From NCBI GenBank assembly GCA_951406725.2, contig OX597821.1:114886001-114950000 (forward strand): a DNA stretch of 64,000 nucleotides, read 5' to 3'. Position 1 is the stretch's first letter; every line of letters starts with the position of its first letter. Under the pieces are notes generated by a model. It was not told the DNA's origin. It ran no database searches and saw only the letters and a program-made list of their open reading frames with translations. Positions 30,934 to 47,979 of this stretch are shown piece by piece. The stretch comes from Octopus vulgaris (lineage: Eukaryota). Position numbers and translations under genes: made by a program.

Positions 30934-31369
30934 GTGTTTGTTGCTGTGATGATGCGTTGTTGAAAGGTATAGATTTGAAACATTCAATGGTCGTAGCTGA
31001 AAAGGATGACATAATAATAATAATAATAAGCCAGCAAAGCTCCATTGGAAAAATAACAAGGAAATCGTAATGCTTAAGGCGAGAGAAAGAGAGAGAGAGA
31101 GGCAGTTAATATATATATATAAAATGCAAGTATTTTGTGGATGCAGAAATACCTGCAGAAAAACCTGATTTAAACAATTTACTAGGAAGGTGAGAAGGAT
31201 GGGGCGAGGTGATCGATTATTGATTTTCTCTCCCCCCCCCTTTTTGTTTATTATTAGTCGGCTACTAATAACTGTTAATAAGATGATATTGATATGATGA
31301 TAGTTACTGGGGGATATACAGGAGAGGAAACCGAATTTATGCTACGGTAGAACCGATGAGGTATTCACA

Positions 31370-31409
31370 CACATACATACACATATATATACATATGTGC
31401 TATATATAC

Positions 31410-31442
<33 letters not shown>

Positions 31443-31958
31443 GCACACACACATATATATAGCACATGAATGTGTGTATATATATTATATAGGACATATG
31501 TATATATATATAGCATATATATATGTGTATATATATAGCCCATATATGTATATATATAGCACATATATGTATATATATAGCACATATATATGTATATATA
31601 TATAGCACATATATATATATATGTATATATATGTGTATATATATATATAGCACATATATATATGTATATATATATGTGTATATAGCACATATATATGTAT
31701 ATATATATGTATATATAACACATATATATGTGTATATATATATATATAACATATATATATGTGTGTGTGTGTGTGTGTATATATATGTGTGTGTGTGTGT
31801 GTGTATATATAGCATATATGTGTGTATATATATAGCACATATATGTGTGTGTATATATATAGCACATATATGTGTATATATATAGCACATATAATATATG
31901 TATATATATATGTATATATAGCACATATATATGTATATATATATGTATATATAGCACA

Positions 31959-32001
<43 letters not shown>

Positions 32002-32862
32002 ATATATATAGCACATATATATGTGAATATATATAGCACATATATGTGTATATATATAGCACATATATGTGTATATATATAGCACATATATGTGTATATA
32101 TATAGCACATATATGTGTATATATATAGCACATATATATGTATATATATATATGTATATATATATATAGCACATATATATATGTATATATATATAGCACA
32201 TATATATATGTATATATAGTACATATATATATGTATATAACATATATATATGTATATATATATATAGCACATATATATATGTATATATATAGCACATATA
32301 TATATATATATATATATAGCACATATATATATGTATATATATATAGCACATATATATGTATATATATATAGCACATATATATGTATATATATATGCACAT
32401 ATATATGTATATATATATAGCACATATATATATATATATATATAACATATATATGTATATATATATACATATATATATGTATATATATATAGCACATATA
32501 TATATGTATATATATATATAGCACATATATATGTATATATATATATAGCACATATATATGTATATATATAGCATATATATATGTATATATATATAGCATA
32601 TATATATATACATATATATGTATATATATAGCACATATATATGTATATATATATAGCATATATATATATAGCACATATATATGTATATATATATATATAG
32701 CACATATATATGTATATATATATATAGCACATATATATGTATATATATATATAGCACATATATATATATATATATATATATATAGCACATATATATATAT
32801 ATATATATATATATAGCACATATATATGTATATATATAGCACATATATATATATAGCACATA

Positions 32863-32894
<32 letters not shown>

Positions 32895-32907
32895 GCACAT
32901 ATATATG

Positions 32908-32946
<39 letters not shown>

Positions 32947-33490
32947 ATATATGTATATATATAGCACATATATATATGTATATATATATAGACATATATA
33001 TATGTATATATATAGCACATATATATATATGTATATATATAGCACATATATATATATATATGTATATATATAGCACATATATATATATATGTATATATAT
33101 AGATATATATATATGTATATATATACATATATATATATATGTATATATATAACACATATATATGTATATATATAGCACATACATATGTATATATATACAT
33201 ATATGTATATACCACATATGTATATATATATATATACCACATGCATATATATATATACCACATATATATATATACCACATACGTATATATATACCACATA
33301 TGTGTATATATATATATACCATATATATATATATACCACATATTTATATATATATATATATATATACAAATATATATATATATATATATATATAGCACAC
33401 ATACACATACGCACATATATATAGCACATACGTATGTTTATATAGAGAACATGTATAATATATATATAGTTTAATATAGCACATACATAC
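31370..33490. repeat. 2.1-kb TA-rich minisatellite (unit about (TA)n-GCACA-(TA)n-TG, 20-30 bp)
   Basis: Dozens of ATATAGCACATATATATGTAT units, shifting to ATACCACAT units at the right end; source of the 640-758 aa YI-repeat ORFs. Confidence 0.95.
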
Positions 33491-33713
33491 GCACACACAA
33501 ACGCATGCACACGAGGAAAGACACATAAATACGTACACCTACATATGCGCGCGCGCTCACGTTCATGCACAAACACACACAGACCCACGCGCGCGCATGC
33601 AATGAGATAGTAAAGCAAGAAATTGATCCAGTGCGTATGTGTCTAATTAGTGCAAGTCGAGTTAATGAATCAGAAACCTGGAGAAGTTATCATTAGATTG
33701 GCCAAGTTTCAAC

Positions 33714-43577: not shown

Positions 43578-43636
<59 letters not shown>

Positions 43637-43718
43637 CGTAAATCGTCTAAAAGTTCACAACTCAGGAAAAAGATGCACTCGTATATCTGTCAATAGAATG
43701 GGTATATTATCCGAAATG

Positions 43719-43815
43719 TATCTTATCAATCGATTTCGCGCTAGGGATACCACGGAGTATTAGGTAACAATCCGATTATATAACACTACGCTCATCAGAG
43801 GTAGCCGATATGGAA
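43719..43815 (-). ncRNA. Second type I hammerhead motif, inverted partner of 43840-43945
   Basis: Minus strand: CGGCTACCT-CTGATGA-GCGTAG...CCCTAGCGC-GAA-ATC-GATT-GAT-A^AGAT. Clean stem III (AUC/GAU, GAUU loop, AUA cleavage triplet); distal stem I is lost by an indel. Confidence 0.55.
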
Positions 43816-43839
43816 TGAAATGAGCCACCATATTTCATT

Positions 43840-43945
43840 CCATATCGGCTACCTCTGATGAGCGTAGGGTTATATAACTGGATTGTTACCTAACACTCCG
43901 TTGTACCCCTAGTGCGAAACTGATTGATAAGATCAGCCGTGATGG
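43840..43945 (+). ncRNA. Type I hammerhead ribozyme motif with extended stem II
   Basis: CGGCTACCT-CTGATGA(43855-61)-long hairpin GCGTAGGG..TATAAC..GGA..TGTT/AACA..TCC..GTTGTA..CCCTAGTGC-GAAA(43916-19)-CTGATTG-ATA^AGATCAGCCG. Stem I CGGCT/AGCCG closes the motif; stem III is imperfect in this copy. Confidence 0.6.
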
Positions 43946-44097
43946 ATATATAATACTGTATACTTCGGAGAATACACACACACAAAATGAAACTTGAAAC
44001 TGTGAAAAAACATTGTTATGTATAAGTATGTTATATGGTGAGTGCGTACCCACCATTTTTTTTTTACTTTGAATTCTGATAAAATCATAATCTAAAC

Positions 44098-44662
44098 CAT
44101 AGGTTCTTAAAGTGGGTGCTACCGCCTTCGGGTGGGCGTTGAGACATTCCAGGTGGGTGCTGGTGCTGGTGGATGGAAGGGCGGTAGAGAAAAAGGAGGC
44201 GTTGGGAGGAAGGCAATGAATTGGGCAACACTATGAATTATTATAGTATTGTATAAAAATTATATAATATTATATTAAATATCAAATGATTCATAGTATA
44301 TATAAATTAGTAAAATATAAAATATTTATTTATACATAAATATAGGGGTGGGGGACTGAGGGTATTATGTGGCCATAATAGGCGAGCTAGCAGAAACGTT
44401 AGCACGCCGGGCGAAATGCGTAGCCGTATTTCGTCTGCCGTTACGTTGTGAGTTCAAATTCCGCCGAGGTCGACTTTGCCTTTCATCCTTTCGGGGTCGA
44501 TAAATTAAGTACCAGTTACGCACTAGGGTCGATATAATCGACTTAATCTGTTTGTCTGTCCTTGTTTGTCTCCTTTGTTTAACTCCTTGTGGGTTGTAAA
44601 GAAATGGGTGTTATGTGGCCATAAGGAGGGGGCGCTGGCCTAAAAAAATTTGAGAACCTCTG
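44098..44662. mobile_element. hAT (Charlie-like) non-autonomous element
   Basis: Ends CATAGGTTCTTAAA / TTTGAGAACCTCTG; exact 8-bp TSD ATCTAAAC (44090-97, 44663-70). Confidence 0.8.
44381..44610 (+). mobile_element. Family-B SINE, CpG intact, with target-site duplication, nested inside a hAT-like element
   Basis: TSD TTATGTGGCCATAA at 44365-44378 and 44611-44624. Confidence 0.88.
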
Positions 44663-47797: not shown

Positions 47798-47979
47798 ATA
47801 TTTGCTGCCTAAATGTGGCTGACCCATAGGAGACGATGCTACTGTTGTTTATAGCCCCAGAAAGACATCGCCTCCAGGTGGTTAACGACACACTGCCGGC
47901 TGGAGGAGATGTCTTCCTGAGGCTATAAACAACAGTAGCATCGTCCCCTATGTGTCAGCCACATTTAGGTAGCAAATAT
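47798..47979. repeat. Inverted repeat with 80-bp arms and a 22-nt loop
   Basis: 47798-47877 is the near-exact reverse complement of 47900-47979. Confidence 0.9.

Follow-up and report, generated by a model that had tools for sequence, protein, structure and literature searches.

A decayed head-to-head pair of Penelope-like 3' ends with predicted long-stem-II type I hammerhead ribozymes in Octopus vulgaris

The window that we analyzed, a 64-kb stretch of Octopus vulgaris DNA, contains at 43637-43974 an insertion in which two 5'-truncated 3' ends of a probable Hydra-type Penelope-like element are joined head-to-head. Its palindromic part has arms of 102 nt each (43720-43821 and 43832-43933) that are 91% complementary and separated by a 10-nt spacer, and the nine differences between them all lie outside the inner 36 bp. 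An initial annotation had described a palindrome with arms of about 100 bp and a perfect inner part of about 36 bp, as was indeed found; its extent of 43700..43975 captured a real palindrome, but the feature is larger. The perfect inner 36 bp are weakly unusual if differences are assumed to be uniform (P 0.016), and by our own arithmetic P rises to ~0.07 after allowing for the lower variability of this third in the family. The minus arm (43637-43821, minus strand) starts ~22 nt upstream of the hammerhead core and has a long 3' end bearing a 66-nt tail (43637-43702, minus strand; placed by alignment to copy L026 and by the histogram of ends), which is present on this arm only. The plus arm (43826-43974, plus strand) starts ~30 nt upstream of the core and stops at a short 3' end (~+120), and the two 5' ends meet at an inversion junction at 43822-43825.

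On one side the insertion is flanked by a (TA)n microsatellite (43580-43636), which is its likely target given the TA runs near the 3' ends of the family, and on the other by a short (AC)n run (43974-43984). No target-site duplication of at least 5 nt was detected in the flanks tested, and no remnants of the element protein were found elsewhere in the window. In contigs from 4 of 24 runs, whose status as RNA was guessed, nearly all matches came from other copies and none spanned the locus, which is evidence neither way. Other features of the window include a separate hairpin at 47825-47952 (~38-nt arms, 50-nt loop) with a sub-threshold match to a miRNA model, a degenerate (TA)n/(TG)n microsatellite that covers more than 2 kb (31340-33640) and generates spurious long frames and, at 44440-44550, what we take to be a common octopus SINE-type repeat.

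Both arms contain CTGATGA, a stem II domain of exactly 54 nt, as had been estimated, and GAAA, followed by a short helix III with a GATT loop and a UH site (hammerhead positions are numbered here in the customary way). A relaxed type I descriptor matched only twice in the 64-kb window, once in each arm, as compared to 0.02 matches per shuffle in 100 two-base-block shuffles. The minus hammerhead (43724-43798, minus strand) has its core CTGATGA at 43798-43792, the stem II domain at 43791-43738, GAAA at 43737-43734 and H17 at 43724. In the plus hammerhead (43839-43946, plus strand), the core is at 43855-43861, the stem II domain at 43862-43915 and GAAA at 43916-43919; helix I is formed between 43839-43854 and 43930-43946, its 2+5+5 bp being interrupted by two internal loops, and helix III (43919-43928) has a C15.2/A16.2 mismatch. 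The cut is predicted after 43929, and the initial annotation had placed it correctly.

That annotation had also viewed the arms as a pair of full hammerheads, and here it had to be revised, as neither copy has all three helices intact. In the plus arm C15.2 and A16.2 are unable to pair, so an intact hammerhead junction cannot form, and in the minus arm a 26-nt deletion (site at 43719-43721, minus strand) has removed most of the 3' strand of helix I. What each copy was said to have kept is nevertheless there: the plus arm retains helices I and II (fold z -3.6 and stem II z -3.9 relative to shuffles), and the minus helix III does pair, with U15.2-A16.2. Taken as a whole, the minus arm is no more stably folded than its shuffles (z 0.26; stem II z -0.37). 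The U-A pair of the minus helix III, at 43726 and 43733, replaces C-G; its G>A change is common to the plus arm and its C>T change is private, and the replacement may reflect either chance or hairpin repair. Across 117 copies, position 16.2 is G (triplet GUA) in 108 and A in six, two of these six being the window arms. The AUA triplet noted earlier is thus present in both arms, but is not a feature of the family, and judged by sequence comparison it is a change derived from GUA. Both ribozyme copies in the window are damaged and likely inactive. A proposed competition between ribozyme folding and a long RNA hairpin was not supported either, since read-through RNA is predicted to fold as a hairpin at -167 kcal/mol (z -20.5) versus ~-36 kcal/mol for one arm, and neither arm forms an intact junction. 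The recommended Rfam search, at E up to 10, gave no hammerhead match in the window or in three better-preserved copies of the family, likely due to the long stem II. Rfam returned only sub-threshold miRNA-like hairpin matches, and a miRNA reading of the locus was rejected.

A search of the 2.8-Gb genome (227 contigs) yielded 1,696 first-look candidates, 40 of which were scored. A set of 117 distinct copies was divided by a crude classifier into four subfamilies, A-D (46, 40, 7 and 23 copies; one unassigned), and the copies are 7.5-9.6% diverged from their subfamily majorities. All 12 core positions (CUGANGA, GAAA and UH) are kept in the four majorities, with D differing only at the free N7. 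Loss of the core or helices in other copies had been named as one observation that would speak against the ribozyme; the four majorities keep both and, with ~1,700 candidates in the genome, the idea of a repeat family whose type I hammerhead motif has a long stem II was borne out. Most individual copies are decayed, and the 12 core bases are intact in 76 of the 116 that were assigned.

In the four majorities, constraining the RNA to the hammerhead fold costs 2.1, 2.1, 2.1 and 0 kcal/mol over the minimum. The minimum-energy fold of A-C has helix I displaced by two bases, onto C3-U4, and in these subfamilies the exact junction accounts for 1-2% of the predicted ensemble, versus 63% for D. We thus rejected the expectation that the exact hammerhead is the minimum-energy fold in every subfamily, as this holds only for D; among 90 ungapped copies that were folded, it is the minimum in four. 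When the same substitutions were placed at random (six directions among three lineages, 1000 trials each), an equally stable fold with an intact core was obtained in 0, 8, 2, 1, 0 and 0 trials per 1000. Between subfamilies, both sides of a pair have changed at stem II pair 4 (U-G/U-A/C-G), at pair 7 (G-C/A-U) and at a helix I pair (U-A/C-G), which amounts to three events among four related lineages. In 22 copies that we chose from the 117, 88.6% of 814 cells pair and the covariation score beat 500 of 500 shuffles, and the count of pairs with both-sided changes did not beat them (75/500). Support for stem II is best for the outer 8 bp and less for the inner 38-nt stem-loop. The majority helix III self-pairs over 10 bp, with -12.4 as a dimer versus -0.9 alone, and helix III dimers are likewise described for Penelope hammerheads in the cited part of PMC4209133.

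A/T positions of the core have changed less than others (2.6% versus 6.5%, P 0.006, 39 copies), and in 12 copies found through the endonuclease the core and other positions showed no difference in change rate. Our tentative reading of the lower core change among copies is selection on many source elements. It appears from sequence and folding models that the ribozyme is maintained in source elements, and its self-cleavage is predicted. The 5' ends of copies show no spike at the cut site: two of 82 copies begin there versus ~0.9 expected, and 77 of 82 span it. In a cut-site-anchored set, 4 of 62 copies (an edge-biased count) start at +70 to +73, that is, 3-6 nt before the cut.

Several observations connect the motif to a retroelement. 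In two of the first 30 loci the similarity extends more than 1 kb upstream into a broken frame, and a peptide from the endonuclease remnant, used alone as a query, gave 150 matches in the genome. A hammerhead motif was located downstream on the same strand, mostly ~750-800 nt away, in 15 of 20 such loci that were fetched, a count that includes the query's own locus and two partial motifs and has L040 scored on the corrected strand. This supports the earlier suspicion of a Penelope element. Longer copies have the order RT motif YRDD, CxCX5C linker, endonuclease, long 3' UTR and hammerhead, and the endonuclease remnant shows CxxC..E and N..CxH motifs and no CCHH; the linker and endonuclease motifs were read by eye in the broken frames of L008, L029, L067 and L070. 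In L070/L032 and L067/L034 a YRDD-type motif is followed by the endonuclease remnant and then the hammerhead. The same RT, linker and endonuclease pattern is given for Hydra elements in section 11 of PMC8557442. A TA run occurs within 24 nt of the 3' end in 52 of 106 copies and any dinucleotide run in 75 of 106, both counts standing without a background control, and the apparent (TA)n target preference fits that of the Hydra clade. One copy, L052, matches the published Hydra-1_Obim ribozyme, and its protein is 43% identical to that of our family over 169 aa. We therefore consider the element a probable Hydra-type Penelope-like family, a sister of Hydra-1_Obim, with the clade assigned from motifs compared by eye and not from a tree. 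Pfam detected no domain above the cut-off in the protein fragments of the family (GIY-YIG appeared only in a sister family, below the cut-off at E 0.027), and a PDB search with these fragments gave no match above the cut-off. Compared by eye, the tail is similar to the 5' start of Hydra-1_Obim and to the 3' end of Hydra-1_Crog as published in the cited part of the PMC8557442 supplement; because of this match, it might be the 5' start of a next unit, and no tail upstream of an ORF was found in 40 long loci.

Other hammerhead-like motifs were observed in the genome. L052:2569-3920 is a close Hydra-1_Obim copy with a short-stem hammerhead. A third Hydra-type family (L051, L054, L056 and L061) has longer open frames, up to 557 codons, and its 3' end carries a hammerhead-like motif whose core has U4>C and whose stem II domain is 31 nt long; the standard core is present in L057 and L065. 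Across the Hydra families of this genome, stem II is thus 23, 31 and 54 nt long. L054:1-1500 (G000:C13:25761000-25762500) consists of at least three tandem, near-perfect 485-bp units, the start of which was not seen, and each unit contains a type I hammerhead motif with an 8-bp helix I, a 68-nt stem II domain and a palindromic helix III; it resembles a recently formed array of the retrozyme type and would be a second case of a long stem II. A 12-bp helix closes the 57-nt stem II domain of a hammerhead-like motif in L063 (~2330-2430, strand-flipped), the helix I of which is ill-defined. Another such motif, in L069 (~1346-1440), combines a palindromic helix III with a low-complexity stem II domain of 76 nt and probably belongs to another Penelope family.

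The arrangement seen in the window is common in the family. Patterns downstream of the core identified 140 loci; 52 of them are head-to-head pairs and one is a tail-to-tail pair, and both cores are present in 23, of which 21 are tight pairs. The head-to-head fold-back is the ordinary insertion product of this family. Copies end at two 3' sites, ~+120 and ~+188 from C3 (alignments extend to +200 in flanking repeats). Of the 71 pairs that could be classified in a set of 232 loci, 63 join a short end to a long, tailed one (P 4e-12 relative to free pairing; eight further pairs with another end type, of 79 in total, were excluded), and the window insertion, with one short and one long end, is like most of them. 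Many 5' ends fall a short distance upstream of the ribozyme, between -45 and -11 (55 of the 95 ends at risk, none of them an alignment break; 0.0165 per nt versus 0.002-0.007 elsewhere), and this clustering is why both arms so often hold the whole core. These 55 ends adjoin an inverted arm in 30 cases, a microsatellite in 11 and unrelated DNA in 14. The cluster may stem from the RNA fold, from an RNA end or from microhomology at ATAT.

The origin that best accounts for the locus, to which we assign a probability of about 80%, is a decayed two-ended insertion with predicted long-stem-II type I hammerheads, made by priming from both nicked strands of the (TA)n target, a process for which the term twin priming is in use. 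The element protein would nick both strands; one strand would prime at ~+188 and the other at ~+120 on uncut element RNA, and the two cDNA ends would then be joined, in many cases soon after the enzyme had moved past the ribozyme. Joining at this point would leave each arm with the whole core. In source elements, by analogy, the ribozyme may trim tandem transcripts slowly, either as a dimer through its self-complementary helix III or with the help of protein. An anole Penelope protein nicks and extends both strands in vitro, with two start sites that bound the tail; it uses uncut RNA, and cleavage is protein-assisted (PMC11167929).

The same element and ribozyme could also have produced inversions by self-priming, in which the first copy folds back and is recopied, as offered, on an antisense template, for rotifer Penelope palindromes in the cited part of PMC3846280. 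In the 52 tight pairs, the long arm starts within 10 nt of the short arm in 18, upstream of it in 10 and downstream in 24. The 18 near-symmetric pairs are in favor of fold-back, as are the G16.2>A change common to both window arms and an excess of variants common to both arms (36 versus 16 expected in 16 pairs, three pairs split by the crude classifier having been dropped; 61 versus 21 in all 19), although one RNA template would explain shared variants equally well. However, in 24 of the 52 each arm has sequence absent from its partner, so that neither is nested in the other, and in nine the long arm is nearly tail only and barely overlaps its partner; nor does fold-back demand the strict pairing of short and long ends. 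As a general account self-priming is therefore doubtful, and it is possible for the symmetric pairs.

Another reading concerns the ribozyme: the long stem II might have abolished cleavage, and the fold would be retained as a signal at which the reverse transcriptase binds or starts. The exact junction makes up a small share of the predicted ensemble in A-C, copies derive from uncut RNA, 5' ends accumulate beside the fold, and the U4>C core of the third Hydra family would suit a relic too. On the other hand, four subfamilies keep all 12 core positions with only N7 changed, and an uncut template is also given by an active, protein-assisted Penelope hammerhead (PMC11167929). We regard this reading as unlikely.

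It is very unlikely that the fold-back works as a switch or as a hairpin-RNA gene, with two ribozymes silenced by antisense pairing and small RNAs against the family as a possible product. The very stable hairpin of a read-through RNA and the perfect inner 36 bp would suit such a role, and the 21 tight pairs with both cores among 140 loci imply many potential double-stranded RNA sources in the genome. However, both window ribozymes are broken, and the arms depart from the family majority at 5 and 6 of 95 positions, as other copies do. Moreover, the two arms of a pair differ by 0.11-0.13 per site, nearly as much as random copies do (0.14); strong homogenization of arms was not seen overall, with a weak hint of it in the inner third of tight pairs (25 of 148 differences versus ~25% expected). 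The head-to-head structure is also the default product of the family. The locus is a decayed double copy of a Penelope-like 3' end, a dead repeat, and its palindrome has no function of its own and gives no sign of a regulatory switch. Finally, a non-LTR retrozyme, as the initial annotation had allowed, or a MITE-like DNA element with terminal inverted repeats would also be short, non-coding, hammerhead-bearing and inverted, but is hardly tenable in view of the lack of direct tandems of the motif (same-strand repeats in 0 of 86 loci), its continuity with RT-endonuclease remnants, the variable 5' truncation with fixed 3' ends and the failure to find a target duplication.

Much of this architecture has precedents. 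Hammerheads at Penelope ends, opposite-strand pairs, head-to-head inversion and one-sided tails have all been published, as the cited parts of PMC3846280, PMC4209133 and PMC8557442 document, and each of the three already contains head-to-head structures. Hydra-1_Obim, as presented in the sections of PMC8557442 cited, is similar to our family in having an RT followed by a C-terminal endonuclease, a CxCX5C linker, (TA)n targets and a type I hammerhead near the 3' end; our family is distinct from its close copy L052 by the 43% protein identity given above, and differs from the published element in a 3' UTR of several hundred nt and in a stem II domain of 54 nt, whereas that of Hydra-1_Obim has 23 nt and the remaining Hydra motifs listed there have ~10-25 nt. 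Two 12-nt words of our motif are absent from the cited part of the PMC8557442 supplement. The Penelope hammerheads of Cervera and de la Pena (2014, PMC4209133, cited in part) are likewise type I with a short palindromic helix III suited to dimers, and opposite-strand pairs 100-700 bp apart were noted there, as was an expected low activity of these hammerheads. However, their helix II has 6-8 bp and a small loop, as compared to 8 bp and a 38-nt bulged stem-loop here, and the long interrupted helix I is unlike theirs in the sections cited. Long stem II domains also occur in PLE-X1_sMoe (~52 nt) and PLE-X1_sTam, in the cited part of supplement S2 of PMC8557442, so that stem II length alone has precedent; these are plant, endonuclease-less elements with single 'deviating' predictions, presented in that part without subfamily covariation.

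Inverted pLTRs with a tail (Arkhipova et al. 2013, PMC3846280, as far as cited; Frangieh et al. 2024, PMC11167929) share with our family the head-to-head inversion, a tail at one end, AT-rich targets and two start sites. The tail is 66 nt here versus 30-40 in those systems and, unlike in those studies, 79 pairs were counted and the arm geometry favors two-strand priming over self-priming. Non-LTR retrozymes, in the cited parts of PMC7229834 and bioRxiv 10.64898/2026.07.22.740005, also have a type I hammerhead and derive from Penelope elements, but form direct tandem arrays of 170-400 nt units, whereas our locus is the inverted truncated end of an autonomous element. No description of a motif with a 54-nt stem II was found in the literature covered, including the cited parts of PMC3088659 and PMC6765202; the family may be catalogued in Repbase/Dfam, and the bioRxiv and PMC4209133 supplements could list such motifs. 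The motif is apparently a previously undescribed form, with a long stem II, of a retroelement ribozyme that is known as such, and the type of inversion that carries it is known as well.

With its 54-nt stem II and long interrupted helix I, the family brings a further natural hammerhead architecture, one missed by Rfam, which suggests that ribozyme counts in such genomes are underestimated, and it supplies natural variants suited to cleavage testing. The many tight palindromes in the genome may be sources of double-stranded RNA. The pair statistics bear on the open question of how Penelope inversions originate, which is testable in an existing in vitro system. We tentatively suggest that the 38-nt extension of stem II might be a module that docks the element's own protein, licenses cleavage and stops the reverse transcriptase a little past the ribozyme, with the family's hundreds of short-plus-long head-to-head pairs recording twin priming at two fixed starts on one uncut RNA; if true, this would settle the origin of Penelope inversions and tails.
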